This document shows positions 30,662 through 48,349 of a stretch of DNA of 64,000 nt, piece after piece. The stretch is from a virus. A program made the translations under genes and the position numbers. Positions within the stretch are counted from its first letter, which is position 1, and every line of letters begins with the position of its first letter. The notes below the pieces were generated by a model that was not told the DNA's origin, made no database searches, and saw only the letters and a program-made list of their open reading frames with translations. The stretch lies in IMG/VR virus record IMGVR_UViG_3300039183_000005, positions 96,001 to 160,000 of that record. The stretch is one strand, 5' to 3'.

Positions 30662-31168
30662 CTAGTCTTTATTTTGTCGAGTTACAACGTTTTTCAAAAG
30701 AGTGCGCAATACATTTTTATTAGCATTCCCGTCATCTAAATTCATGTTATCTATGATAAGCTTGCCGTTTAAATGATCGATTTCATGCTGCCAAATTCTA
30801 GTTGTAATTGCGTCTCCTATAAATTTTAGTGGCCTACCATTAATGCCGGTTCCGTCAAGTATTGACGATGTTGCTCTTTGTATTGTCACATTAACTCCTG
30901 GTATTGATAGACACCCTTCTCTGGACTCAATTTTGCCACTAATACAACTAAGTACTGGATTCCATATTGCTTGATCTTGTTCGTTTTGCTTCCAAACGAA
31001 CATGCGGATATTCAATCCGACTTGTGTCGCAGCAAGTCCTGCCCCATGGTTTTTTCTCATGATTTTCCACATTTTTGATACAAGTCTAGCTCTATCTTTT
31101 GGGGATTCCGTTGGTGCTTCAATACATTTGACCAACAATTTTGGGTTTGGATAATATATTAATCGCAT
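30662..31168 (-). CDS. def: Peptide deformylase
   Basis: GAGLAATQVG, EGCLS, QHEIDHLNG. Confidence 0.95.
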   Translation of the reverse strand: MRLIYYPNPKLLVKCIEAPTESPKDRARLVSKMWKIMRKNHGAGLAATQVGLNIRMFVWKQNEQDQAIWNPVLSCISGKIESREGCLSIPGVNVTIQRATSSILDGTGINGRPLKFIGDAITTRIWQHEIDHLNGKLIIDNMNLDDGNANKNVLRTLLKNVVTRQNKD

Positions 31169-32826: not shown

Positions 32827-33015
32827 TTATAATTTGAATGTTTTCCCTATAGATGGATGCCTTTTGACTTCAAATATTATTGTTGCACGTAAGTCTGCCT
32901 CTAATTTATCTAATGCTTCTTTTGACACTCTTGTGATTGGCATTCCTGGCCTCAAACTACGAAATTTTGCAAGAATGAATTTTTTTGTTGCTGATTGGTT
33001 TAGTATACTAGTCAT
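32827..33015 (-). CDS. Small histone-fold-like protein (62 aa)
   Basis: MTSILNQSATKKFI...RVSKEALDKLEADLRATIIFEVKR...GKT: histone alpha1 / RVS loop / long alpha2 / KT pattern; TAATG-coupled start at 33015. Confidence 0.6.
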   Translation of the reverse strand: MTSILNQSATKKFILAKFRSLRPGMPITRVSKEALDKLEADLRATIIFEVKRHPSIGKTFKL

Positions 33016-33353
33016 TATTGTTTCCTTAATTGTTCTTCTATAAATTGTTCTATTTTTGATTGTTGATCTGGCCACTCTGGATAATCTAATAAAAATCTAT
33101 TACATTTTACGCACCTACATTCAAACGGTGATAGCCAGTTATCAAATTGCTGCCAAACTTCATGCCAATTTATAATTACACCACGCTCATACAATAATGC
33201 TTCTATTTTCTTTTGTTGTAATTCCCATGGAGGATCATATAGGAGTTTTTCCTGTCCACATGATTTGCAAGTAGGTGGACTTTTAGTTATATTATAAGAC
33301 CAATCTTCAAATTCTTCCCAGAGTCTTTTCCAGTTTATTTTTTGTTTATCCAT
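33015..33353 (-). CDS. Hypothetical protein made of two tandem W/CxxC repeats
   Basis: INW..W..F..W...CxxC...W..QQ.KIE twice. Confidence 0.65.
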   Translation of the reverse strand: MDKQKINWKRLWEEFEDWSYNITKSPPTCKSCGQEKLLYDPPWELQQKKIEALLYERGVIINWHEVWQQFDNWLSPFECRCVKCNRFLLDYPEWPDQQSKIEQFIEEQLRKQ

Positions 33354-33559
33354 TATCTTCCTCCAAGTTGACGATTTCTTGTTTCAATGGTCCTTCTTTG
33401 TCGATATTCCGGTTTATCTCTTTGTAACGTTTGTTCACCAAGAGCATGTTCTACTTCGGATATAAAATGGGCACATTCTGTCCCCTGAAATCCTTCTCCA
33501 TCTATAGAACAATTTCCATTAGCGTCTATGTCTATTACGATTTGTTTTTGCCCTCGCAT
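33353..33559 (-). CDS. DUF2997-family protein
   Basis: I.I.ID..G...I...GF.G..C......E.ALG......KPEY. Confidence 0.75.
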   Translation of the reverse strand: MRGQKQIVIDIDANGNCSIDGEGFQGTECAHFISEVEHALGEQTLQRDKPEYRQRRTIETRNRQLGGR

Positions 33560-33882
33560 TATTTCTTCTCCGCTTCATACATCAGTTCTTCGAAGTATGC
33601 ATTACTTTCTGATTCAGTTAGGCGACTTCTTAGTTTTTTCTTTCGTTTTTCGGCTAGCGCTAAAGCATCGCTTGCATCACACAAACAATCAATTGCCGAT
33701 TTAAAACGACCTAAGTCTGTTTGTATTTGTTCTATAGTCATTATACGCCTAGGGCTCTTTCTAGTTATAATTTCTGTTTCTGTGTAAATTGAAATACTGA
33801 CATCTGATTCTCCCATAATTTCTTCTAGCTCGCACAATCCATTAGTACGTATATAAGAATCATCTTTTAGTCTAATTTTCAT
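33559..33882 (-). CDS. Hypothetical protein
   Basis: Coupled ORF. Confidence 0.5.
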   Translation of the reverse strand: MKIRLKDDSYIRTNGLCELEEIMGESDVSISIYTETEIITRKSPRRIMTIEQIQTDLGRFKSAIDCLCDASDALALAEKRKKKLRSRLTESESNAYFEELMYEAEKK

Positions 33883-34123
33883 AATATTGGTTTCCTGGAG
33901 AAAATTTTTCTATTTCCCATTCTATCGCATTCTCTCTGTTTTTGTTCGTATACAATACTTTCCCGTCAAGTGATGTAACTTGCCATTTTTGCAATTTCTC
34001 GCAGAACTCCACGTTGGATGCCTTGCGCACATTTTGAACGCGCCCGATGGCAAACAGGTCGATTTTGTCAGTGTATAATCCATGAACATTTCCTTTATCA
34101 CAAATTTCTAGAACTATTTTCAT
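33872..34123 (-). CDS. Conserved small protein (LY...IDL..IG...RKASNVE...W family)
   Basis: Motif recalled from partners of DUF1257/DUF2997/AAA clusters; not verified by search. Confidence 0.6.
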   Translation of the reverse strand: MKIVLEICDKGNVHGLYTDKIDLFAIGRVQNVRKASNVEFCEKLQKWQVTSLDGKVLYTNKNRENAIEWEIEKFSPGNQYYEN

Positions 34124-34446
34124 AAATCATCCTTTTTTATATCATATTGTTTCATCAATTTTTCAGTACCACGGATGATATCAAATAAAAGTTCAATTGC
34201 CAATTTTTCTGCATTAATCATAGCGCACTTTCGAGTTGGTTTGTAGTCGCCCCTTCTTTCGAATAATGTTGTGCCATTTTGTTGCTGAAATCTAACAGTA
34301 CCAAAGTAGCGTATTCCACTATAGTCTGGTGGCCATCCAAAGTTACAAATTAAGCGGATGTTATGCCATTTCGCTTCATGTAGGAATGAACTTTCAGTCT
34401 TATGCCATTTTTCAGTTAACTGTATTTTCATTTTTTGTTTCAACAA
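34120..34446 (-). CDS. Hypothetical protein
   Basis: Coupled ORF. Confidence 0.5.
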   Translation of the reverse strand: MLKQKMKIQLTEKWHKTESSFLHEAKWHNIRLICNFGWPPDYSGIRYFGTVRFQQQNGTTLFERRGDYKPTRKCAMINAEKLAIELLFDIIRGTEKLMKQYDIKKDDL

Positions 34447-34497
34447 AATTAGGATATTGATGTAAGATTACTTTTTTGTTCATATTACACCCAATAT

Positions 34498-34761
34498 TTA
34501 CGCAACGTTCATGTTCCTAGAATTTAATAATGCTTGCAAATATAATTCTGTAGGATTTTTCCCAAATTGTGATTCTAGTTCGTCTGCTATTTCCGTCAAT
34601 GAAAAACAAATTGTTTTATCGTTGCAACACTTACACTTATTACCAAGTGTTTGTGCTTCTCTGCAAATGTGTGGACGACCTTCATTTCGCTTACATTTCG
34701 TACATTTATACATATTATTTTCTCCTTGGTAATGTTTCGTCCATAGATAATGGACTAACAA
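34498..34761 (-). CDS. Small Cys-rich hypothetical protein (true start probably MYKCTKC)
   Basis: CxxC...HxC...CxCC. Confidence 0.5.
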   Translation of the reverse strand: MLVHYLWTKHYQGENNMYKCTKCKRNEGRPHICREAQTLGNKCKCCNDKTICFSLTEIADELESQFGKNPTELYLQALLNSRNMNVA

Positions 34762-35746
34762 TTATACATGATACTTTTTCTCTTAACTGAGCAATATTTT
34801 CAGAACCCCCCATTGCTAACCCAGACTTTATTCCATTAGCACATTCAGATATCATATATTCTGTTGATCCTTTATCGTCAACTTCCATGGAGATTCCTTC
34901 TGGTGCTATATCTGGTCGTTCTGATGCCATTCTAGAACTCATTCCTCGATAGATTCTGTTACCATTTATTTTTGGTGTATCACTTGTACCTGCCAACATG
35001 TAACCAATCATGCAGGCATCAGCACCACCCCACAAACTTTTGACCATATCTCCAGAACTTCTAATTCCGCCATCTGCTATAATTGCTACATCTGGATATT
35101 CTTCTTTAACGCAAGAGGCACAGTCAAGTATGGCTGACATTTGGGGGCAGCCGAAGCCAGTTATTATCCTTGTGGTGCAGGCAGCTCCAGGGCCGATGCC
35201 GACCTTGATAGCATCAACGCCGCAAGACGCAAAAGTGAAGGCAGCTTTTGGTGTACACACATTCCCAGCCATTAAAACAAACTTATATTGATCCTTAAGG
35301 CTTACAACTCTACTTATTGCATCATACATCTTCGCATGATCACCATGCGCAACATCAATGCAAATTACATTACACCCATTATCTAATAAAGTTTTTGCCT
35401 TTTTAAGTGTATTTCCGCGAATACCGATGGCACATCCTATATTTTTTGCTCCCATAGCAATGGCCAGCTTGATTTCATCGACCTGTTTTACCAACTCTTT
35501 GTCGTCCGGCATATTGATATAACGAGTTAAAATACCTAGACCGCTACATCTGTCCATGGTTGCTAACATTTCGTGTCCAGTTATTGTATCCATTGGAGCA
35601 GAAATTATAGGTACTTTAAGTTTTAAAAACCCAATTTGAGTAGATATGTCTGGGATTGTTCTTGATGATAGTGTTGAATATTGTGGTACAAGTAGAATAT
35701 CGTTAAAGCATATTTTTTGATTTTGTTTGTATTCGTATGTCCACAT
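34715..35746 (-). CDS. IMP dehydrogenase / GMP reductase (CBS-less)
   Basis: FNDILLVPQ, SAPMDT, IDVAHG, AGNV, KVGIGPGAACTTR, IADGGI, YRGMSS, PEG. Confidence 0.9.
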   Translation of the reverse strand: MWTYEYKQNQKICFNDILLVPQYSTLSSRTIPDISTQIGFLKLKVPIISAPMDTITGHEMLATMDRCSGLGILTRYINMPDDKELVKQVDEIKLAIAMGAKNIGCAIGIRGNTLKKAKTLLDNGCNVICIDVAHGDHAKMYDAISRVVSLKDQYKFVLMAGNVCTPKAAFTFASCGVDAIKVGIGPGAACTTRIITGFGCPQMSAILDCASCVKEEYPDVAIIADGGIRSSGDMVKSLWGGADACMIGYMLAGTSDTPKINGNRIYRGMSSRMASERPDIAPEGISMEVDDKGSTEYMISECANGIKSGLAMGGSENIAQLREKVSCIIVSPLSMDETLPRRK

Positions 35747-35755
35747 AATATTTTC

Positions 35756-36187
35756 CTATTTACTAAGCATTTCTATACATTCTGTACAAGTTGGTTGACG
35801 GAACTCAAGGCCCAACGGTAACGTTATCCAATGGTTACATTTAGTTTTTACATGATCTCTATATCTAATTGATTTGCCAGCACACGCACACCAACCATCG
35901 TTGTGTTGTACACAGGCGATACATTCTGATATTTTTTGTTTATTAAGAAAGATGTTATGTAAAGATTTGGCAGATTCTAACGCTGCTGACAAATCGTTAA
36001 ATATTTTTTTATCCAATGAATTAATGACATCTTCTCTTCCACAGATTTCCCAACCAAAGTCAGTCTTACGGATAAAAGTACCAAGTCCGTCATGTATATG
36101 AATAGACCTATTTTGTTCTAGTAATTCAATAAGCCAATTTGGATCATGTTGTATTACTGATTTTTTATTTAATTTTGATTTATTCAT
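35756..36187 (-). CDS. Hypothetical protein
   Basis: Packed ORF with C-terminal Cys cluster. Confidence 0.5.
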   Translation of the reverse strand: MNKSKLNKKSVIQHDPNWLIELLEQNRSIHIHDGLGTFIRKTDFGWEICGREDVINSLDKKIFNDLSAALESAKSLHNIFLNKQKISECIACVQHNDGWCACAGKSIRYRDHVKTKCNHWITLPLGLEFRQPTCTECIEMLSK

Positions 36188-36704
36188 TGTGCTGAATTTC
36201 CTTTGTCAATAGTACTCTGACTTTATTTAATTCATCTTCAGTGTGAATAGTGCCGCCGGAATTGATATCCAAATACCATTGAAGTACTTCTCTACGAGTT
36301 TTTAGATTGTTTACATGAAAACACAAATGGACATCAAACGGTTTGTCTACAAAATCAGAAATATATAGTCCACGAAAAACTGGAACTTTACCAGCCATAA
36401 AATCCAAACAAGCAGTGAGACGTTGTTTTCCAACTACAAGTTCAAATGGTCCGTCGTATGAACCTTGCCATCCTGGGCAATTAAAGTAAAAATCTTTAGA
36501 TGAATTTCCACCACTTAGAATAAATTCAATATAACGAGATTGTTGCTTTGGAGTCCATACATGGATTCTTTGAAAATCTGGCTCTAAATTCAGTGGACAT
36601 AAGTGTTCTTCTTGATACTTTTTTATGGTTGATGGTAACGTATGAAGAAAGTGATGAACCGAATATACCGGTTGACTTATTTGTGGAATATCAGCAAATT
36701 TCAT
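36180..36704 (-). CDS. DUF262 (ParB/GmrSD N-terminal-like) protein
   Basis: PDFQR..VWT..QQ..YIE, VVGKQRLTA (DGxQR variant), IN.GGT. Confidence 0.75.
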   Translation of the reverse strand: MKFADIPQISQPVYSVHHFLHTLPSTIKKYQEEHLCPLNLEPDFQRIHVWTPKQQSRYIEFILSGGNSSKDFYFNCPGWQGSYDGPFELVVGKQRLTACLDFMAGKVPVFRGLYISDFVDKPFDVHLCFHVNNLKTRREVLQWYLDINSGGTIHTEDELNKVRVLLTKEIQHNE

Positions 36705-36713
36705 TGATATCTC

Positions 36714-37091
36714 CTATAATTCTATTCGTCTTACCAACGAATGCCTTCTTTTTTCTGTTGGTTTTGTTACTGGCTTTGGCTTCTTGATCCTGACCTGACT
36801 GATTTGTCCGTCACCATTGGATGCAGTCACAGCACCACACATAATAAAAAACTGAGATGGACTAATTAAATCGATACCCATAGAGCGTGCTTTTTCGGCT
36901 TTGATAGATTTACTGTTTGCATCAGCAATTACTAGAATGGTAGTTCTGCTTGTGACAGAATTGGTTACATCTGCGCCAGCGTTTAGTGCGATTGCTTGCA
37001 TTTCCGAACGCGGTTTTGGAGATTTACCGGTGAAACAGAAAACCGCTTCTTTCAAGCAACCTGTGTCTTCGTTGATAAATTTTAAAGCCAT
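36714..37091 (-). CDS. Stand-alone BRCT domain protein
   Basis: FCFTG...R.E.....GA.V..SV...T..LV....K..KA...GI..I...F. Confidence 0.8.
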   Translation of the reverse strand: MALKFINEDTGCLKEAVFCFTGKSPKPRSEMQAIALNAGADVTNSVTSRTTILVIADANSKSIKAEKARSMGIDLISPSQFFIMCGAVTASNGDGQISQVRIKKPKPVTKPTEKRRHSLVRRIEL

Positions 37092-37504
37092 TACCTATAT
37101 CCGGTTACAATCACTCTTTGGTGACCATTTGGGCAACGTTCCCTGGTAACACTCCGACCACGAGATTCTTGCTCTCTTCGAATTCTATGGTAGGCATAGT
37201 TTCCAGTTAGACTACCTATCCATTTTTTCCCATATCGCCCTGAATCGTATTCAGAAATTATTGCTTCGTATTTACCATCTTCTCGTTTTACAAAACCAAT
37301 ATCATTAGATGCGGAACCAACGTGTTTGCGCCTAATTATAATATGGGCCTTTTGTTCTCGTTGATCACCATGGTATCCGAATAGATGTTGAGGAACTTCG
37401 TGGATTTCTATTTGACCAGTAGTCCATTTCCCCGTTTCAACGAGTGCGTCAATAAGTGAGTCTTGATCTTTGAATTCGGTTTGTACTTCACAATATCTGC
37501 TCAT
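37091..37504 (-). CDS. DUF1257 (Ycf35-like) protein
   Basis: MS.Y....T...D...L..AL, L.GY.GD.R...A.I.I, DIGF....DG.Y.AII..YD, Y. Confidence 0.78.
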   Translation of the reverse strand: MSRYCEVQTEFKDQDSLIDALVETGKWTTGQIEIHEVPQHLFGYHGDQREQKAHIIIRRKHVGSASNDIGFVKREDGKYEAIISEYDSGRYGKKWIGSLTGNYAYHRIRREQESRGRSVTRERCPNGHQRVIVTGYR

Positions 37505-37508
37505 ACTT

Positions 37509-37697
37509 TTAATCCTTATCAAAATCTATTAGAAAGTCAAAAAATTCACCATTTTCAGAGATCATTTCTGCTCTACCACAGGGATGTAAACGATTGAATA
37601 ACTGGTCTGACAATGTTGCTATGACAAAGATTGCTTCTTTTTCTGTGAAAAAAAATCTAGTGGTTTCCGATATTCCTTTTCTATTCTCTACTTTCAT
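37509..37697 (-). CDS. Hypothetical protein
   Basis: Coupled ORF. Confidence 0.45.
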   Translation of the reverse strand: MKVENRKGISETTRFFFTEKEAIFVIATLSDQLFNRLHPCGRAEMISENGEFFDFLIDFDKD

Positions 37698-38524
37698 TAC
37701 AGTTTCCCCAGAGATTTTAGTAATCGTGCCCTCGCGAATGCATTCAGAGGTGGAGTTACCATCTCACTTTGGTGGACACAATTTATTTCACCACATTTGT
37801 TGCAGCAATACGGTTGGTCACCATCAAGGCTACGACACCATGCTTCTGGATCATCACCGCAAGGAATAAACTCCTCATCATTACAGCAACAGAGTTCAGA
37901 TAATTCTTCACATTTTGGACACATTTCTTCTAGACATTCATCGCAGAATTTTGATTCGGAAGCCCTGTCGTTTGTGCCACACATATCGCACCCAGCATTA
38001 TTATTGTTTTCGTTTTCATAATCGTTTTCTATAATTTTAACTGGCTTAAGTGCTACGGCGAATCTTGGAATATCTTTAGTTGGATCGAATGATTTATGTA
38101 AGCGAGCTAGTTCGCGAGCAACACCACCTAAAAGGCCAGTATCGAAATTAGTGAATAGTTTACCGCCAAGTTCAATTTCATTTCCGTATCCAGTATATTA
38201 GCCTGTCGTATAAGCCACGCCATCATGATAACAACCACCCAAAATTACTTGTTTATCAACATTATGTGGTTCTGAAATGGGTATCACCGAGTCGATAGTC
38301 AAATCTTTTATAGCTCCACTCCAATTACAGTCTTTGGGTCTTACGCGAGTCAAACGACTCGCTGGAAGTTCACTGTGATTTATGTCGATGGTATTACCGG
38401 TTTTTTCCCAATACATCAATTTGTAATGTCTTCTGGTTTGTTCGTAATCTATTCCTGTTATTAGACAGACAACTTCATTATCATCGAATTTAGCTATAGC
38501 CAAGTCACCAATTCTAACTTTCAT
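37697..38524 (-). pseudogene. Probable single 275-codon gene interrupted by an in-frame TAA at 38198-38200
   Basis: ORFs 38198..38524 and 37697..37984 share a frame; the 71 codons between them are open and lack a start codon. Confidence 0.6.
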
Positions 38525-38539
38525 ACTCTGTCTCCAGTT

Positions 38540-39550
38540 TTACAAAATAACTCGCCTTTTAAGTTCACCAATGAATCCACGACAATCCTGTCCTTCAGCA
38601 GCAGCTTTATTGCGAATTGCTTCAAGAGATTTACTGATACTATCTTTTACGGTAGCGGATTCAAAGTCTTTTGGTGTGACACCAGAATCCAAAAATGTAT
38701 TTCGGAAGTCTACCAGCATTTTTTCAATTTCGCCGTCGCCGAAGATGTTCATAGACCTAAAGCGGTCTACATATTTCCGGAAGCACGAGATTGATTTCGG
38801 AGTTAGTTTCTTTGCATCGCTTTCATCTCCATATGGTTTACCGCTTATGCGTGCCGTCATAAGTTTACAAAATCGAATAGTTTCGTTACGCATAGAAGTC
38901 ACGTACTCGCTTACGAAGTTGCCCACTTCGGTTTGCATTTGACGACGCAGCTCATTCTCTTTCTCGTCTTGCACTTTTTGTCGAGCAATTACTTCTTCAA
39001 CACTGGTTTCTTCTATCGATCCTATACCAGCAATTTTAAACGTAAACCAATCGAATTGAAATTTTGCCCGCAGGGCTTGTGGATTTGCCGGATAATGACC
39101 CCTTAGACACTTGTTCCAAAAATCTGGATGTGTTTCTCTTACTGTACGAACAAGATCATCGAAACGAGAAATGAAACTATCTACTCGTTCAAAAAATTCT
39201 TCTTTTAAATCTTTAATTTGTTGTTCCACTGTTGGGAGCATTTTTGCTGGAACAAAATGGGAGCTACTGATACCGAATGGCACAGACCACCTTTCCAGTG
39301 CTTTTCGAGCACGCTGTTCGATTTGGGTTAAATGTTGTAATTCAGATTTTGGCACCATTAATTTGCGACCAAGATTGCATATTTCTTCTGGAAGTTTGTC
39401 TGGGTCGTATCCTATCTTTACTAAATCTGCGCGAGTAATCATTTTTCGCGCGCTCCACATACGAACTCTAAGGTTCACCAGTAATCCAACATCAAATAAG
39501 TTTATGGCATCTTGCTTTGTGTCTTTGTTTTCGGTTACAATTGTACTCAT
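38540..39550 (-). CDS. DUF3150-like protein
   Basis: W..RK...LG.K....R..L...SVPF...FVP...Y P...KF.F pattern; adjacent to the AAA ATPase. Confidence 0.6.
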   Translation of the reverse strand: MSTIVTENKDTKQDAINLFDVGLLVNLRVRMWSARKMITRADLVKIGYDPDKLPEEICNLGRKLMVPKSELQHLTQIEQRARKALERWSVPFGISSSHFVPAKMLPTVEQQIKDLKEEFFERVDSFISRFDDLVRTVRETHPDFWNKCLRGHYPANPQALRAKFQFDWFTFKIAGIGSIEETSVEEVIARQKVQDEKENELRRQMQTEVGNFVSEYVTSMRNETIRFCKLMTARISGKPYGDESDAKKLTPKSISCFRKYVDRFRSMNIFGDGEIEKMLVDFRNTFLDSGVTPKDFESATVKDSISKSLEAIRNKAAAEGQDCRGFIGELKRRVIL

Positions 39551-39567
39551 GTTCTCATCTTCCTTTC

Positions 39568-41127
39568 TTAATTTAAACTGATTTTTCTTTCACCAATTTT
39601 TGGCGGTGCAGTTTTTGGTGGTGGATTGGCAGGCTTAGCGTGATTAGCGCACCATTGTCTAATGTTTGCTACGCGACTAGCTTCTGTTTTTGATAAAGGT
39701 ATAATTTCCGGAACAGCTTGTTTTAAGTGATAGGTTTTAAGTTGTTCCTTTTTCGAAAACGCCATTTTTAGACCAAGCTTAACAACTTGCTCAATATCGG
39801 CGCCAGTAAAGCCATCGGTTGATTTTGCCAACATATTAATGTCGAAATCATTTGGATCACGATTTCTTTTAATTAAATGTATAGTGAATATTTCTATACG
39901 CTCTTTTTCTGCTGGAAGATCAAGGCCATATATTTCGTCGAATCGGCCTTTTCTGGAAAGTTCTGGAGGAAGTGATTGAATTTGGTTTGCAGTAGCGATT
40001 ATGTATACCGAGGACTGTCTATCGTTTAACCATTTTATAAATGATCCGAATAATCTGCGAGATGCCCCGCCATCAAAGTCGCCAGAGCCACCGAAACCTT
40101 TTTCTATTTCGTCTAAAACCAATTCGCATGGAGATACGCTTTCTATCATTTTAATAGCCTCTCGCATATTTCGTTCCGATTCTCCAACGAACTTGTTCAT
40201 AAGATTGCCGACATCCATTGCAATAATTGGCAACCCTAGTTCAGATGCAATAGCGGAAGATAATAGAGTTTTTCCGCATCCCTGCAATCCGACAAGCATA
40301 AGACCCCGTGGGAATTCAATGCCGAAATCCCTAGCTTCTTTTGAAAAACATGGACGATCTAACAAAACATGCTGTTTAATTGCGTCATAACCACCAACCA
40401 AAGATAGTCCGCCACTGGGCGGTTCAATATAGGTTAATAACCCAGATGCCCGAATTACTCCAGCCTTTTCACGAATAATAGTTTTGATTGCATCACCATT
40501 TAAGTCTTTATGTTTTCTTAATGCCAATGCTACTCTATCGACAATTTGTTGAGAGGTCATACCCCTACATGCGTCTACAATTTTTGGGATAATGGTTTTG
40601 CTTGGTTCAAATTTAGTTCCATCAGATTTTGTTACTTCGCTACATACAAAATCGATTCGTTCATTAATTTGTTCATTATTTGGTAATGCGAAATCCATTT
40701 GAGTTATGTCGTGAGATAGTGATTTCGGGATATCAAAATTAGGTCCGACCATAACTATTGTTTGTTGCACAGAAGCTACAATTTTTCGAAGTTCGTCTAG
40801 CCAGCCAATTACTACGTCGTATCGTGGATATGTTACGTGTTGAAAATATTCACCACAATCACGTAGGATGCAGATTGTTTTTTCTGGAAAATCTACTATG
40901 GCTTGTATATGATCTTCTACCGGGGCGGCTGGTACTACTTCGCAAACTTTGTTGCCATTTTCGTCGATCCATCCCTGCGCAATAGACCAAATATATACTT
41001 TACGATCTATCTTTTTCGCTACTTTCGCAATTTCGCTGATGGCACGATCTTTTTCGAAAGTGTCGACATGTAACAAGGCATGACCAGAACAACAGTAATC
41101 GGCAAAATCCTCACCAAAATTATTCAT
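39568..41127 (-). CDS. Ycf46-like AAA+ ATPase (degenerate N-terminal AAA + active C-terminal AAA)
   Basis: T.E..R, W....G, LP...I, G.QGCGKT, GESE.NMR, LDEIEK, ATAN...LPPE..RKGRFDE, GFTGADIEQ, PLS...R.W. Confidence 0.88.
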   Translation of the reverse strand: MNNFGEDFADYCCSGHALLHVDTFEKDRAISEIAKVAKKIDRKVYIWSIAQGWIDENGNKVCEVVPAAPVEDHIQAIVDFPEKTICILRDCGEYFQHVTYPRYDVVIGWLDELRKIVASVQQTIVMVGPNFDIPKSLSHDITQMDFALPNNEQINERIDFVCSEVTKSDGTKFEPSKTIIPKIVDACRGMTSQQIVDRVALALRKHKDLNGDAIKTIIREKAGVIRASGLLTYIEPPSGGLSLVGGYDAIKQHVLLDRPCFSKEARDFGIEFPRGLMLVGLQGCGKTLLSSAIASELGLPIIAMDVGNLMNKFVGESERNMREAIKMIESVSPCELVLDEIEKGFGGSGDFDGGASRRLFGSFIKWLNDRQSSVYIIATANQIQSLPPELSRKGRFDEIYGLDLPAEKERIEIFTIHLIKRNRDPNDFDINMLAKSTDGFTGADIEQVVKLGLKMAFSKKEQLKTYHLKQAVPEIIPLSKTEASRVANIRQWCANHAKPANPPPKTAPPKIGERKISLN

Positions 41128-41181: not shown

Positions 41182-41394
41182 TTATTCTTCTAGCAAATTG
41201 CGCGCAGTAAACAATTCGCTTCTAGTCGCATCAGCATCAAAACGCAGATATGTTACTAGTATTGCTACATGATCCAGCAATACTTCGATTTCGTCTTTGT
41301 GCAGATGGGATTGTTTTCTAGTCATTAGGTCTGAATCAATATCGGCCCTATCTAGAATAACTCTTAGCCTGGCTGCGATCTTCTTTTTGTCCAT
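41182..41394 (-). CDS. Small coiled-coil protein, Y..FD..ATR.E family (copy 1)
   Basis: TYLRFDADATRSE; paralog of 42078..42254. Confidence 0.65.
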   Translation of the reverse strand: MDKKKIAARLRVILDRADIDSDLMTRKQSHLHKDEIEVLLDHVAILVTYLRFDADATRSELFTARNLLEE

Positions 41395-41436: not shown

Positions 41437-41631
41437 CTAATTTTTTTCAGTATCGGTTATCGGAACTACAGCACCACTTTCGTTCCTTACTAAGTTAATT
41501 TTCTTCAACAGTCTCTTTTCTGTCTTGCAATCCGCTTCACAAAGTTGTTCCCAATGAGCGTTGCAAATGTTACGACCGATATACCTAAGCTCTGCGTAAC
41601 ATCTACATTTCGGAAACTCACATTGTTCCAT
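41437..41631 (-). CDS. Small zinc-binding hypothetical protein
   Basis: C....C...C..H. Confidence 0.5.
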   Translation of the reverse strand: MEQCEFPKCRCYAELRYIGRNICNAHWEQLCEADCKTEKRLLKKINLVRNESGAVVPITDTEKN

Positions 41632-41636
41632 ATGAA

Positions 41637-41906
41637 TTATTCTTCAACTTTATCCGTTACGACATCTGGGTCCAAGTCTGTTTTGCTAATCTCGCCGCCG
41701 TACTGAACATCTCCACAATCCGATAAGACATGCCCCATTTTTCTAAGAATACTTGCACCCCTTCTTCTATCGTTTGTATTTTTCAATTGGTTTGCAAGTG
41801 ATCCCATAATCCCTTTCTGAATAACGATAGTCGTTTCTCCTGTTTTTGTGTTGACTTCAATAATTTCGAATGCCGGATTGTTTCTATTTTTTTCATTACT
41901 AGACAT
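41637..41906 (-). CDS. Hypothetical protein
   Basis: AGGAG Shine-Dalgarno before ATG 41906. Confidence 0.55.
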   Translation of the reverse strand: MSSNEKNRNNPAFEIIEVNTKTGETTIVIQKGIMGSLANQLKNTNDRRRGASILRKMGHVLSDCGDVQYGGEISKTDLDPDVVTDKVEE

Positions 41907-41972
41907 TTTTCTTACTCCTGTTTTCCGACTGACTTTTATGGCCGATTGTACGTAATCGGCTCTACACACCAA

Positions 41973-42268: not shown

Positions 42269-42475
42269 TTAATCATATATTGATGGATATGACAAAAACA
42301 TATATGATGATAATTGTAAATGTTCTATGGCTTCTTTTATTTTATCGTAGTCGATAAATTTTTCTGTTATTGGTGATTTATTTACACAATCACATTCGCA
42401 AGACCAAGTAAATAGGGTTATTCGTCCACTTCCACCGCAATTTTTACATTTTGGGTCTGGTTTCCCGTTTGGCAT
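42269..42475 (-). CDS. Small zinc-finger protein
   Basis: CKNCGGSG...CECDC. Confidence 0.5.
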   Translation of the reverse strand: MPNGKPDPKCKNCGGSGRITLFTWSCECDCVNKSPITEKFIDYDKIKEAIEHLQLSSYMFLSYPSIYD

Positions 42476-42479
42476 TATT

Positions 42480-43241
42480 TTATTTTCCTTGTTTTTTATC
42501 TCGTTCCATACATGAAAAACAGTCCATTCCTAAATCCAGTTGTTCTGCCCTCCATTTCCAGACGTGTTTTCTTGCGTCGTAGTAGTCAATTTCGCCGAAG
42601 TGTTTCCACGGGAAATATCCCATAGGGCACAATGTTATCATACCTGTTTCTATTACCATCAATTGCCCTGTTTCTTTGCAACACCCACAGCAAACTTCGA
42701 ATTCACGACTTGATAGGTGATTATCCCATGCTCTTCCAAGCGGCAATAGCTTATTATCTGGAATATTTACTCCATAAATCAATTTAGCTTTTGGACTGTG
42801 TTCGCGATATAGTCGTTGTGCTCGTTTGCTGAATTTCTGGTGCCATTTATCATCGGATATTGCCACAAGAACTTCGTCGCAGATTTCACAAACAGAATCT
42901 ATTGATAATAGGAACTTATTCGTAGCCATTTTGTCGTAGGCCCATTGACCGTTTGTAACTATAGATGCTTTATGTCTACCAGATGTCAGAGCTATGAGAA
43001 TTTCTGGATAGTCTGGAAGTATCGTGAACTCTCCACCCATTATGTTTATTCTTATGTTTTTCGGCAACCATGTGTTTAATAATTCGCAGTCTCGGATAGA
43101 TAACTGACCTATACATTCAGGGCCAGACCTGAAACAACAATGAGAACACCGTTCGTTACACTGGTTTGTCACCCTAGCCACAAATTCATTGGTCCATGAA
43201 TTATTGCTCCACTTACTAAACCAGTGATTATACTTTGGCAT
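42480..43241 (-). CDS. Radical SAM protein with SPASM/twitch-like C-terminus
   Basis: CNERCSHC, MGGE, TNG, S.D.WH, GRA, C...G...CP. Confidence 0.88.
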   Translation of the reverse strand: MPKYNHWFSKWSNNSWTNEFVARVTNQCNERCSHCCFRSGPECIGQLSIRDCELLNTWLPKNIRINIMGGEFTILPDYPEILIALTSGRHKASIVTNGQWAYDKMATNKFLLSIDSVCEICDEVLVAISDDKWHQKFSKRAQRLYREHSPKAKLIYGVNIPDNKLLPLGRAWDNHLSSREFEVCCGCCKETGQLMVIETGMITLCPMGYFPWKHFGEIDYYDARKHVWKWRAEQLDLGMDCFSCMERDKKQGK

Positions 43242-44010
43242 GAATTTTTTCTCTCGACAACCTGATAGATTGATCATGCTCCATGCATGAGCAGCAAGTC
43301 ATCCCTCTTGTAAGTTGTTCTGATCGCCAATTTAATACATATTCCTTAGCTTCATACCATGAAGTCTCTGTGAAATGTTTCCACGGAAAATAACCAAACG
43401 GACACTTACACACCATTCCGTCTTCTGATATGAACATATTACCCATTGTGTTACATCTTGCCCATTTTTGTGGATCGGGGACAATATTATTATCCCACGC
43501 TCTTCCAACCGGAACAATCTCCGATACAGGAAGATTACCAGGATCAACTAATGTGACTTTTGGACAATTATTCTGCATAATTTCAAATGCTTTTGGCCAC
43601 GTATGTTTGTGCCATTTGTCCGTTGATATAGCGACATCAACTTCTTTACATATTTCTGTAAGAGAGTTAATGGTTTTTATGAAATTTTTTCTGATTGTGA
43701 ATATGCGAAACCATTGTCCATTTGTAACAATGCGGATATGATTTCTGTTTTTTGCCAGTACGTAAAGAATTTCTGGATAATTATGCAATATAGTTATTTC
43801 ACCACCCATTATATTCGGACTAACATCATGCGGTATCTATCTATTAATATCGATACAATCATTAGTAGATATGTGGCCAACACATTTTGGGCCAGACCGG
43901 AAAGCACAGTGAATACACTTTTGATTGCATCTGTTTGTAACTCTTACTACACAGGCATTTATTGTTGTATTTGTTGTCCATATTTTTGGATATTTTTTAT
44001 TGCTACTCAT
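43228..44010 (-). pseudogene. Radical SAM paralog with an in-frame TAG (43837-43839) at a position that is Trp in its neighbour
   Basis: Manual translation from ATG 44010: ...VRVTNRCNQKCIHCAFRSGPKCVG...INR*IPHDVSPNIMGGE; paralog reads LNTWLP. Confidence 0.8.
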
Positions 44011-44570: not shown

Positions 44571-45224
44571 TCATTTGGTCCCCATTTCATTGGTCAGCAA
44601 ATTTACATCGATTTCTTTATCTATTTCGCATCCACGAAGCCACTTGGCGAATTGTGCTACTCTTATGCCAGCCGATACGTTTGCGCAATAAATTGTTGTT
44701 TTTGCAGTACATGACCCAGAATAAGTTTCTCTCTGTGGGAATAGCGTTGTGTTATAGTGCTCTTTAGATTCTTCGTCGTGTGCGACGAAGATTCTCATAT
44801 ATTCTGCACTCATTCTTCCATCGATAAATAAGTCAGCTCGATTTTTGACTGCGTTAAAAATAGATTTTCGTGTTTCAATACTGTCTACACAACAAAATAA
44901 CACACCTCCGGTAAACTGGATTGACATGAATTTTTTATTTGCAGTGTTTATTTCTATCGCCGGATTAATCATGCGACAAACATCTGCCGTTGCGTCAACT
45001 TTAGCACGACCCAAATCTGCTTCGAAATATCCTTGTGCTGCCAGATTTTCTACTTTTACTATATCAAAATCAATTAATTGAATTTTGGGCACACCAATTG
45101 CCGCTAGTTGCAGTGCAACCTGACGGCCACCAGCGCCAACTCCCACCACAGTCACTTTTGTGTCTTGCAATTTTTCTGGTGGAATTAGTTCTCTCTGACG
45201 GATGTCTCTATTTTCAATATTCAC
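44571..45224 (-). CDS. ThiF/E1-like ubiquitin-like-protein activating enzyme
   Basis: R..RQ, VGVGAGG, LIDFD.V..ENL..Q, G..KV, CVDS...R, DGRM, candidate catalytic Cys in GSCTAK. Confidence 0.92.
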   Translation of the reverse strand: MNIENRDIRQRELIPPEKLQDTKVTVVGVGAGGRQVALQLAAIGVPKIQLIDFDIVKVENLAAQGYFEADLGRAKVDATADVCRMINPAIEINTANKKFMSIQFTGGVLFCCVDSIETRKSIFNAVKNRADLFIDGRMSAEYMRIFVAHDEESKEHYNTTLFPQRETYSGSCTAKTTIYCANVSAGIRVAQFAKWLRGCEIDKEIDVNLLTNEMGTK

Positions 45225-45256: not shown

Positions 45257-46144
45257 TTATAGATTTTCTTCAGCCCAAGCAACCACCATATTCGACCATT
45301 TTTGGATTGGTTTGTTTATCGCAACAATATCATTTCGATTTTCACCAAAAGCATCTTCAGAAAACCATCTTTTTTCTATTGGATCATAAAAATACCACAA
45401 GGCATCATTATATTCAAAAAATGCAGCATAGCCGTTATCATCCCAATGGCAATCAAAGTCTAATTCTTCCACCCGATTAAGTTCATCCTGTTGCCGAGCC
45501 AACTGTTCGTACTTTTTATTCCACCATAGCGGGTCATCATCAGGTTTGTCGTCTTGTACCAGACAGGAACGAGTAATTCCACCTTCTTTTCCTGTCATGC
45601 AGAATTTCTCAATCTGTACTTTATCTTTATATTCATTATTCCAGGCTTCAATGTTTGAACCATTAAATGGAACATTCCAATCTACTGCAATTTTTAGTTC
45701 TTTTACCACTCCCGGTCCAACGTTAATCTTCAATCTACAGTAGATTTCTCCACCTCTTGCAATGATGAACATTATGGCCCAATATGGATGGGAAAACGCT
45801 TTTCGGAAATTTTCTTCATCGGTTCCGCTAGGTTGAGGACAATTTCCTGGATGGGAATGTAGTAAAATATTTTGACATGTCCAGGGCGGCATTCCAATAT
45901 CCATCATTCGTTCTGCGTAATCCGCCATATCTTCTGAGTCAAAATCGAATGAAGCTCCAGTACATTTTTGTTTTATCAAAATGAAATCTGTAACTAAAAG
46001 TGGGTCTTCAGTTCCGGTTACTCCATAACCAGCTACTTCAGTTGGCCCTTTATCTCTCATATAAATTAATTTTGCAAAACTGTATGGAGTAAATCGCAAT
46101 GTATCTCCAAAAGTCATTTTTGGCGTCGTGAATTTTTTACTCAT
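45257..46144 (-). CDS. JAB/MPN (Mov34) metallopeptidase
   Basis: TEVAG (Glu) and HSHPGNCPQPSGTD = JAMM HxH-x7-S-x2-D; ATGA-coupled to the E2-like gene with AGGAG SD. Confidence 0.9.
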   Translation of the reverse strand: MSKKFTTPKMTFGDTLRFTPYSFAKLIYMRDKGPTEVAGYGVTGTEDPLLVTDFILIKQKCTGASFDFDSEDMADYAERMMDIGMPPWTCQNILLHSHPGNCPQPSGTDEENFRKAFSHPYWAIMFIIARGGEIYCRLKINVGPGVVKELKIAVDWNVPFNGSNIEAWNNEYKDKVQIEKFCMTGKEGGITRSCLVQDDKPDDDPLWWNKKYEQLARQQDELNRVEELDFDCHWDDNGYAAFFEYNDALWYFYDPIEKRWFSEDAFGENRNDIVAINKPIQKWSNMVVAWAEENL

Positions 46145-47391
46145 ACTCCTATTCCTTCTAATAGACAACCATGTTCTTCAAGACAGGATGAACACATTGG
46201 AACTCCACAGTGTTCACATGTTGTTTGACAATCTTCGCAAATACTCTTTTGACAACTATGACATTCATCAAGACACTCTTTGCAGCAATTCTCTTCACAA
46301 AGACCGCATGTAATCATACATTTTTCACATATAGGTTTATTGCAACAAGAACACGCCGATATACATGGATTGCAGAAATATTCCTGACAAATAGTGCATT
46401 GGCTTAGACACGACGAACAGTAATTTTTTTCGCATTCGGTACACATACTTGCACAGTTGTTGCAAAGTGCCTCTCCGCATTCATTACATTGTGTACCACA
46501 TTCACTACACATCCATTGGTCACACACACAACACGCATCACCATTTTCTGCACAATTTTCACAGTAGTTACAGTCACACATTGCACAATAGTACCCACAT
46601 TCATCTGGACACCATTCCCTACAATTTTCACAACAGAACTCCCCTTCGTGGTCTGGTTCATACCATTTTTCTAATTTGTCATACGGTGAATCATCATTAT
46701 ATGTTCGTAGAATAGATTCTACAACTCTAAAACAATCTTCGAGTCTACCCTGGCATATGGCATTTGTTATAGCTTCTTCTCCTTTCCCTTGACATAAAGA
46801 TTCATCTCCAATGTGTGGATGATAATATCCTCCTAATGATTGTATTTCATTTACTGACTCTATAGTTATGTTATACGGATTCGTTAGATCAATGTGTACC
46901 CAAAAGTGCCCAAGGTCTACTTCTTCATTTTCATCTTCGAGCACAACATCCTCGATAAGTACCGATAGTTTGTTGTCGCGAAATTTAACATTTTTCCAGG
47001 CGTTGCTAATTATTCTAATTTCTTCTGTTATTTCTTTTAGCGACAATGGTGTTACTAGACCTTTTTCTGTCATGATTTTAATTATTGCCATTGCTTGGCG
47101 TGTCATTTCTATAACACTATCTCCAATGTTTGGAATCATGGTTGTCGCAATATTTTCGTATACACTTGGATTTACAATTCCCAGATGTCGGACTGATGGT
47201 TCCCATTCATTAACTTGGACACGCGGACTTGTTCCAGCAATAAATCTATCGTACCATCGTTTTATTTCTTCCAATTTGATAGCAGCATTTGTTATTGCAT
47301 TACTTGCGCTCATATTGAGATTAACAGATTGTTGTTCCACCATCCATTTGTGATATTTGATAGCAGCTCTGCGTATTAGTTTTTCATTCAC
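46141..47391 (-). CDS. E2/UBC-like protein with C-terminal tandem CxxC array
   Basis: YHPHIGDESLCQG (cf. UBC HPN...IC) and SILRTYNDDSPY (cf. SLL.xPN..SP); about 20 CxxC pairs at the C-terminus. Confidence 0.72.
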   Translation of the reverse strand: MNEKLIRRAAIKYHKWMVEQQSVNLNMSASNAITNAAIKLEEIKRWYDRFIAGTSPRVQVNEWEPSVRHLGIVNPSVYENIATTMIPNIGDSVIEMTRQAMAIIKIMTEKGLVTPLSLKEITEEIRIISNAWKNVKFRDNKLSVLIEDVVLEDENEEVDLGHFWVHIDLTNPYNITIESVNEIQSLGGYYHPHIGDESLCQGKGEEAITNAICQGRLEDCFRVVESILRTYNDDSPYDKLEKWYEPDHEGEFCCENCREWCPDECGYYCAMCDCNYCENCAENGDACCVCDQWMCSECGTQCNECGEALCNNCASMCTECEKNYCSSCLSQCTICQEYFCNPCISACSCCNKPICEKCMITCGLCEENCCKECLDECHSCQKSICEDCQTTCEHCGVPMCSSCLEEHGCLLEGIGV

Positions 47392-47803: not shown

Positions 47804-47837
47804 AAAAGGGGGTGGGGGAACGTATCTCCCCCACCCC
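47804..47837 (-). terminator. Rho-independent terminator downstream of the Ubl gene
   Basis: Minus strand GGGGTGGGGGAGA-TACG-TTCCCCCACCCC-CTTTT. Confidence 0.8.
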
Positions 47838-47872: not shown

Positions 47873-48349
47873 TTACGAACGCTTCGTCAGCTTACTCCGA
47901 ACCAACTCGGCATCTTCTTTACTAAGACCGCTAAGCAACTTGGAAACAGTCTTCGGAAGCTTATCCCTAGACATTTGTACTCTCTTTAATTTATATGCGA
48001 GAGTAAGTACATTTGGATCGGTATCGGCGGCAAGTCGCTCAGCGATAGTTACATTATCAGTGCTCATTTTGGTCCTCAGAGAAGCTATCTGCTCCTCATT
48101 TGTTCCTGGACCTTTACCCGCGTCGCCCTCGATCTTTTTCGGCGCCAGACTTACCCTGTCACCGTCTTGAAGGACATAATCCAGATGAGCTTCGACAGTC
48201 ATGCCATTTGCACGAACTCGGATTGTGAAATCATCCAAATCGCGACCGAAAGAAACCTCAAGAAATTTTTCCAACGTCGTTCCATTGACAACGGGAATCT
48301 TGCGCGGAATACCAGAACCGTCATTTGTTACCAACATTACCTCGATCAT
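47873..48349 (-). CDS. Ubiquitin-like (beta-grasp, MoaD/ThiS-like) protein, 75-aa domain ending KIEG plus an 83-aa C-terminal extension
   Basis: I.V.LV.N.G.G....IPV..GTTL..F...IRV...YVLQDGDRVSLAPKKIEG. Confidence 0.8.
   Translation of the reverse strand: MIEVMLVTNDGSGIPRKIPVVNGTTLEKFLEVSFGRDLDDFTIRVRANGMTVEAHLDYVLQDGDRVSLAPKKIEGDAGKGPGTNEEQIASLRTKMSTDNVTIAERLAADTDPNVLTLAYKLKRVQMSRDKLPKTVSKLLSGLSKEDAELVRSKLTKRS

Follow-up and report, generated by a model that had tools for sequence, protein, structure and literature searches.

A predicted AAA unfoldase module of mobile elements and its linkage to a ubiquitin-like conjugation cassette in one phage family and in Planctomycetota islands

The stretch of DNA analysed here (64,000 nucleotides, hereafter the window) covers bases 96001–160000 of the 168,332-bp single-contig virus record IMGVR_UViG_3300039183_000005, has a G+C content of about 36% and carries nearly all its genes on the minus strand. 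From gene content and conservation, it is clear that a AAA+ ATPase, a DUF3150 protein, a DUF1257 protein, a DUF2997 protein and a small protein with a RASxVE motif constitute a previously undescribed five-gene module of mobile elements, which is autonomous and widespread. In the phage family of the window and in genomic islands of Planctomycetota, this module is accompanied by a cassette of four genes encoding a ubiquitin-like protein (Ubl), an E2-like protein, a JAB peptidase and an E1-like ThiF adenylyltransferase. The dependence is asymmetric, since the module often occurs alone and the cassette rarely does, with exceptions in both directions. The best reading of this pattern is an autonomous unfoldase module to which Ubl tagging has been added as an option, the two having been joined in one lineage made up of the window phage family and the Planctomycetota islands. 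A functional coupling of module and cassette is plausible, and in the window phage it is probable.

A five-gene module split by insertions in the window

The AAA+ ATPase (519 amino acids (aa), 39568–41127) matches Pfam PF00004 at 2e-27, together with AAA_lid_3, and phrog_8638 at 1e-116. The DUF3150 protein (336 aa, 38540–39550; Pfam 3e-22, 79.5 bits against a gathering cut-off of 24.9), the DUF1257 or Ycf35-like protein (37091–37522, with a likely ATG start at 37504; 3e-11, 43.9 bits against 22.2) and the DUF2997 protein (68 aa, 33353–33559; 3e-7, 30.5 bits against 24.1) also score over the Pfam cut-offs, as does the AAA. The fifth member, a small conserved partner of 83 aa (33872–34123, motif GLYTD.IDL...RKASNVE), matched no Pfam family; it belongs to phrog_38408 and has 72 close homologues in metagenomes. 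All five genes lie on the minus strand, and the original prediction, which had picked them out from the letters as a co-oriented set, is thus confirmed by Pfam and, for the small protein, by phrog_38408 and its homologues.

The interleaving with unrelated open reading frames (ORFs) that had been described at the same time was also found, and the intervening ORFs turned out to be variable insertions. In eight IMG/VR relatives, in which the AAA is 66–76% identical, the AAA, DUF3150, DUF1257, small and DUF2997 genes keep their order while the ORFs in between come and go; among 12 relatives the module genes are kept and the interleaved ORFs differ. In G009, a collinear relative, the module is compact (4.4 kb). 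In Rhizobium phage L338C and Aeromonas phage HJ05, the AAA gene, a ~210-aa gene, DUF1257, DUF2997 and a closing gene for a ~121-aa protein are contiguous, and this last protein shares the motif G-L-Y-x-D-x-I-D-L...R-A-S-x-V-E with the small partner at 33872–34123. Since the set is contiguous in L338C, HJ05 and G009 and the intervening ORFs vary among the relatives, the five genes are one unit, which accessory-gene insertions have pulled apart in the window phage. The ~210-aa gene following the AAA in L338C was considered as a DUF3150 counterpart and rejected, as no similarity was found.

The same associations recur more widely, with DUF2997 adjoining DUF1257 in 60 sampled loci and the family of the small partner coming after DUF3150 in the Planctomycetota islands as well. 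A conserved 82-aa gene (32827–33075, minus strand) stands directly 3′ of DUF2997 in all close relatives, as judged by synteny; its membership in the module is uncertain. A literature search turned up no mention of DUF3150. The only literature context found for DUF1257 and DUF2997 is the cyanobacterial DUF2997-ycf35-fed7 cluster (PMC4284462), and Ycf46 and Ycf35 were otherwise found only in plastid-genome annotation and in the cyanobacterial stress literature.

Some further observations concern single module proteins. The N-terminus M-S-[H/R] of DUF1257 is nearly invariant among 34 diverse sequences, which hints that a processed N-terminus matters for function. A tblastn search with DUF1257 against cultured phages gave no match though L338C and HJ05 carry the family, a failure of sensitivity. 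A homologue of the small partner with 66% identity is present on a 4.9-Mb contig of a 'Candidatus Heimdallarchaeota' metagenome-assembled genome (P0019), and could reflect a provirus, a binning error or a clue to the host. The AAA homologue in a Sumerlaeota metagenome-assembled genome (L088:10001–11509) has three in-frame stop codons, as in a pseudogene or under an alternative genetic code.

The Ubl cassette in the window

A complete cassette is located upstream of the module on the same strand. It begins with a beta-grasp-like Ubl (47873–48349), which ends in ...KKIEG and is fused to a ~80-aa helical protein. It continues with the putative E2 (46141–47391), assigned by its Y-H-P-H...C motif and carrying a C-terminal array of CxxC repeats, with homologues in the distant phage G032 and in the islands. 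The JAB/JAMM peptidase (45257–46168) has an intact E...HxH...S..D motif by alignment, and its Pfam match (4e-5) falls just below the cut-off. The E1-like ThiF (44571–45224) is a single adenylation domain of 217 aa, identified by Pfam (1e-26), NCBIfam and alignment. The KIEG/KVDG end of the Ubl is conserved in phages and islands alike. In one relative (L007) the ~80-aa helical protein is a separate downstream ORF, and in the others the Ubl ends one or two residues past KIEG/KVDG. To judge from the fused reading frame, this suggests that in the window phage the JAB may release two products from the Ubl gene.

Between the Ubl and E2 genes lies a strong terminator-like hairpin (47809–47837, minus strand; 12-bp stem with nine G-C pairs and a T-rich tail), which could be an attenuator that raises Ubl relative to the enzymes. 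A scan for promoters and terminators gave nothing above shuffled controls, and no operon boundary was detected between ThiF and AAA. In Ca. Amarolinea (L087:13516–15582), a 688-aa protein encoded 2 kb downstream of a Ycf46-like AAA consists of the CxxC repeat array that also forms the tail of the phage E2-like protein; its E2-profile match rests on these repeats only, and it was not accepted as an E2.

Linkage of module and cassette in Planctomycetota and in phages

We have searched 401 sampled Planctomycetota genomes with a JAB profile, and found JAB in 14 of them (31 copies in all). Gimesia sp. SAT87 has five JAB copies. On the Gimesia contig C7, the genes for DUF1257, DUF2997, AAA, DUF3150, the small protein, Ubl, E2, JAB and ThiF follow one another in this order on one strand within 7.4 kb. 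Their products are 47% (ThiF), 44% (JAB), 43% (Ubl) and 28% (AAA) identical to those of the window. Among the 16 JAB copies with enough flanking sequence, 13 have an AAA 3–6 kb upstream on the same strand. Altogether, 13 islands in 11 of the 401 genomes place AAA-DUF3150 directly upstream of Ubl-E2-JAB-ThiF, on one strand and within ~7.5 kb, and all nine families were detected in eight of them. The statement in the original prediction that such a set sits with ThiF, JAB and Ubl genes in planctomycete elements is thereby borne out. Counted by genome, JAB and DUF3150 occur together in 12, JAB only in 2, DUF3150 only in 13 and neither in 374 (all lower bounds), corresponding to an odds ratio of 173 (p = 1.5e-14) in a statistic that ignores phylogeny.

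Among the island flanks are a tRNA-Ser accompanied by a tyrosine integrase, as well as a large serine recombinase, an OLD nuclease and IS66; the islands are therefore small integrative elements, often present in several copies. Within IMG/VR, every one of the 13 JAB-bearing records of the phage family has an AAA 3–9 kb downstream, and the distant phage G032 also carries both module and cassette. The module is nearby or in the same record for 13/16 island copies of the cassette and for 14/15 viral records. The gene order differs between phages and islands, and the nine families are found together in spite of their divergence (ThiF 47% and AAA 28% identical).

We have also surveyed loci anchored on the AAA (80 viral and 80 prokaryotic), using local iterative profiles for ThiF, JAB, E2 and Ubl within 10 kb. 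Ubl genes were found in 10 of 12 close loci of the phage family. An independent distribution of module and Ubl genes, the outcome that the original prediction had set against itself, was our first reading of these 160 loci, of the ThiF scans and of the disjoint hosts of the cultured phages carrying one or the other. This reading was overturned by the JAB-anchored search, which revealed a linkage, albeit an asymmetric one. The AAA-anchored survey had missed the divergent island clade, because its anchor sampled only those AAAs most similar to the window AAA.

Evidence against a general coupling

Several observations weigh against a general coupling of module and cassette. In the AAA-anchored survey, neither the 68 distant viral loci nor the 80 prokaryotic loci showed any Ubl genes within 10 kb. 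Pfam ThiF matched only 8 of 50 whole viral records, six of which are from the window phage family, and none was found in L338C, HJ05 or Corndog. Even G009, although collinear with the window phage, has no cassette in its whole 140-kb record. Cultured-phage relatives of the AAA come from Mycobacterium, Vibrio, Pseudomonas and Rhizobium phages. Those of ThiF come from crAss-like and Flavobacterium phages, where they occur in E2-like-JAB-ThiF sets lacking the AAA. In Planctomycetota regions negative for JAB, all ten DUF3150 islands checked consist of the five-gene module with no cassette.

The reverse exceptions are a cassette by itself in G454, in the complete 52.8-kb phage G057 and in three island copies; one island copy (L214) has DUF3150-Ubl-E2-JAB-ThiF but no AAA. 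In G032, 20 kb and a change of strand separate the two sets, and in the window itself 3.4 kb with at least six ORFs lie between ThiF and AAA. In addition, PDB sequence searches and, for DUF3150, Foldseek revealed no Ubl-binding domain among the partner proteins. The phylogeny also limits how far the linkage can be pressed. The island AAAs form one clade and the phage-family AAAs another, which includes the Ubl-free G009. Independent origins of the linkage, as suggested by this free tree, were dropped since joining the Ubl-linked AAAs of islands and phages was not rejected by the approximately unbiased (AU) test (p = 0.61). A common ancestor may have had all nine genes in one set, the order of which changed afterwards and parts of which disappeared, with the linkage as one inherited event; as a single origin is not rejected, the co-occurrence statistics carry limited weight. 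The ~9-gene set of the original prediction is present in eight islands and, as a linked set, in the phage family. The evidence does not bear it out as a general rule, the module being without Ubl genes in most of about 155 loci sampled from phages and bacteria.

Six of the ten Ubl-free islands have, where the cassette would be, a gene for a ~455-aa protein (motif TDGRQLL), and next to it one for a PD-(D/E)XK nuclease, DNA polymerase A or an integrase. The ~455-aa protein is absent from the Ubl-bearing islands; its label as a sliding clamp is unconfirmed, with no Pfam or PDB sequence match. Both kinds of island have a sixth small gene (~70–93 aa) after the small partner (L219–L228). Among the cultured phages, crAss001 gp78-gp77-gp76 (L191) and FpV4 gp52-gp50 (L192) form a trio of E2-like (HxH...C), JAB and ThiF genes next to those for UDG, primase and exonuclease, and the ThiF is annotated only as 'thiamine biosynthesis'.

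Predicted structure of the AAA protein and its partners

The AAA protein has a degenerate D1-like domain without Walker A (residues ~1–230, no GKT motif), which is followed by a classical AAA domain with intact motifs. Walker A (GCGKT), Walker B (DEIE), the pore loop (FVG) and the Arg-finger region (RKGRFDE) are conserved across 31 diverse homologues, so that all hallmarks of the classical AAA clade (PF00004) are present, including the second region of homology with its Arg fingers. An AlphaFold2 model (pLDDT 88) aligned by Foldseek over its full length (513–560 columns, TMq ~0.62) with D1-D2 chains of p97/Cdc48, in keeping with the fold part of the original proposal of a Cdc48/p97-like AAA. 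The model starts directly with the D1-like alpha/beta domain and has no N-terminal double-psi beta-barrel, and the NCBIfam CDC48 model scores 110 bits against a cut-off of 802. Judging by the model, the protein is thus probably a p97-like two-tier classical unfoldase, with an inactive D1-like and a predicted active D2-like tier, that falls short of the defining Cdc48-family features. Cyanobacterial AAAs are 33–38% identical to it and fall inside the same tree.

The DUF3150 protein is mostly helical (AlphaFold2 model, pLDDT 81), and Foldseek found no PDB fold match for it at E ⩽ 0.001; PDB sequence searches with DUF3150 and the small protein returned nothing meaningful. It ends in a conserved basic-aliphatic motif, KRRVIL (RR-x-[IVL]), in 40 of 47 homologues, and the AAA ends in a basic tail, ERKISLN. 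A C-terminal tail common to both proteins was considered and rejected, the resemblance being approximate only (40/47 for DUF3150 and 38/187 for AAA, on a background of 102/2096, or 4.9%).

A possible tag-and-unfold pathway and its alternatives

From the gene neighbourhood and the fold, the most likely mechanism is a tag-and-unfold pathway, which we hold with moderate confidence. The JAB would trim the Ubl precursor after its KIEG motif, ThiF would adenylate the Ubl, and the E2-like protein would conjugate it to target proteins, possibly those of the host or of a competing phage. The AAA hexamer, with its partners as adaptors, would then engage the tagged proteins and thread them through its pore. 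That Planctomycetota mobile elements and large phages thus encode a minimal and self-contained pathway, in which a Bil-like cascade feeds a p97-like segregase with four new adaptors, is put forward tentatively. If so, it would be an equivalent, in bacteria and viruses, of the ubiquitin-Cdc48 axis, removing or disabling host or rival-phage proteins. Bacterial Ubl conjugation systems (Cap2/3 of the cyclic oligonucleotide-based anti-phage signalling system (CBASS), Bil and Bub) have been newly recognised, and we found no report of a downstream tag reader for any of them; the nine-gene array, with a cascade set against a p97-like unfoldase and four partners, offers a concrete candidate. It would also place the orphan families DUF3150, DUF1257 (Ycf35), DUF2997 and Ycf46-like AAA, all found widely among phages, bacteria, cyanobacteria and plastids, in a functional context for the first time. 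The asymmetric distribution points to a way in which unfoldases that already existed may have acquired tagging systems.

Module and cassette could also be unrelated cargo that travels together, each working alone, with mobile islands and phage accessory regions collecting cassettes and one ancestral juxtaposition being inherited. Each has been found alone many times, a single origin of the linked clade is compatible with the AU test, the islands hold other cargo such as the OLD nuclease and IS66, and the two sets of G032 lie far apart in opposite orientation. However, mere co-travelling does not readily account for the tight one-strand array with no unrelated genes in between, seen in 13 islands from 11 species-level genomes, nor for a linkage that has outlived both the rearrangement of gene order between islands and phages and a deep sequence divergence. 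The cassette is, moreover, rarely away from the module, as counted above for the island copies and viral records, and we consider unrelated cargo unlikely, if still a serious alternative. Less probable again is a regulatory role, in which the Ubl would be attached to one of the module proteins, such as DUF3150 or the small protein, and removed by the JAB, switching the unfoldase on or off. This would suit the optional nature of the cassette, without which the module works, as well as the island arrangement with DUF3150 and the small protein immediately adjoining the Ubl gene and the AAA-less island copy with DUF3150-Ubl-E2-JAB-ThiF. In contrast, Bil operons, the only studied bacterial Ubl cassettes of the same gene order, tag foreign (phage) proteins (PMC11601596).

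The least probable alternative, to which we give little credence, is that the AAA module serves DNA replication or repair in mobile elements as a remodeller, the Ubl cassette being one of several interchangeable accessories. In its favour, the ~455-aa protein replaces the cassette ahead of nuclease, polymerase or integrase genes in 6/10 Ubl-free islands and is missing where the cassette is present. The module also abuts helicase and polymerase genes in L338C and HJ05, and a BRCT-domain gene is inserted into it in the window phage and in 8 of 12 relatives. The clamp assignment of the ~455-aa protein is unconfirmed, though, classical-clade AAA proteins act on proteins rather than on DNA, and any early or middle phage gene is commonly close to replication genes.

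Comparison with known systems

Among the closest known parallels to the window system is Cdc48/p97/VAT with its ubiquitin- or SAMP-directed cofactors (Ufd1-Npl4), with which it shares the two-tier AAA fold, the pore-loop aromatic, the Arg fingers, dedicated small cofactors and a genomic link to a Ubl-E1-E2-JAB system. It differs in that D1 lacks Walker A, and in having neither a double-psi-barrel N domain nor an HbYX tail; DUF3150, DUF1257, DUF2997 and the small protein are unrelated to UBX, Ufd1 and Npl4, and most members of the window-AAA family have no Ubl system. The cassette resembles Bil (BilABCD) in its Ubl-E2-JAB-E1 gene order, its occurrence on mobile elements and the short extension of the Ubl precursor after the C-terminal Gly. 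The gene content of a Bil operon (Ubl, E2, JAB and E1 together) is present in the window, the E2 by its HPH...C motif only. In contrast to the IAD-AAD-CYS architecture of BilD, the window E1 is a single adenylation domain of 217 aa, and the window E2 has a long CxxC-repeat tail. No Bil model of PADLOC or NCBIfam matched the cassette, and among PADLOC anti-phage systems there were only generic matches (IetA AAA domain, CBASS E1-E2, JAB) and no system-specific one. An AAA partner was reported for Ubl cascades neither in the Aravind 2006 survey nor in the Bub paper, and we found none for Bil or Bub in the literature.

Three of the module families are also represented by cyanobacterial and plastid genes, namely Ycf46 (AAA), Ycf35 (DUF1257) and DUF2997. 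The AAA has some of its closest cellular relatives in cyanobacterial loci, some of them with an adjacent DUF1257. The genes of cyanobacteria lie on the chromosome and are linked to a ferredoxin; DUF3150 and the small protein are present in addition in the phage and island sets, some of which also have the Ubl cassette. Pup-Mpa/ARC and SAMP-PAN are alike in concept, with an AAA unfoldase that reads a small protein ligated to its targets as a tag. However, tag chemistry shows no relationship (Pup does not have the beta-grasp fold), and those unfoldases dock on the 20S proteasome, whereas no protease is encoded in the window system.

Neighbouring genes in the phage family

The genes inserted between the DUF1257 and small-partner genes lie outside the module (34715–37091, minus strand), as indicated by Pfam and by their variable presence among relatives. 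They comprise an IMPDH/GMP-reductase family gene (34715–35746), a gene with no family assignment (35756–36187), a GmrSD_N/ParB-like gene (36180–36704) and the BRCT-domain gene (36714–37091). Three small genes in the interval between ThiF and AAA (41637–41972, 41437–41631 and 41182–41394, minus strand) are, by synteny, conserved within this phage family alone and matched no Pfam or PHROG entry.

Small Cys-rich, zinc-ribbon-like ORFs were also noticed at 34498–34761, 37697–37984, 41437–41631 and 42269–42475 (minus strand), and only that at 41437–41631 is kept in all relatives. A 112-aa ORF (33015–33353, minus strand) consists of two internal repeats, each with a W..W..F..W pattern and a CxxC pair, and is not kept in relatives. 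Two tandem radical-SAM genes with SPASM-like Cys motifs are found at 42480–44010 (minus strand), the second being split into the ORFs 43837–44010 and 43228–43809; their best NCBIfam match, a weak one, is to a YydG-type peptide epimerase. Downstream of the module, a gene resembling peptide deformylase in its sequence motifs (30662–31168, minus strand) is kept in all eight relatives compared.

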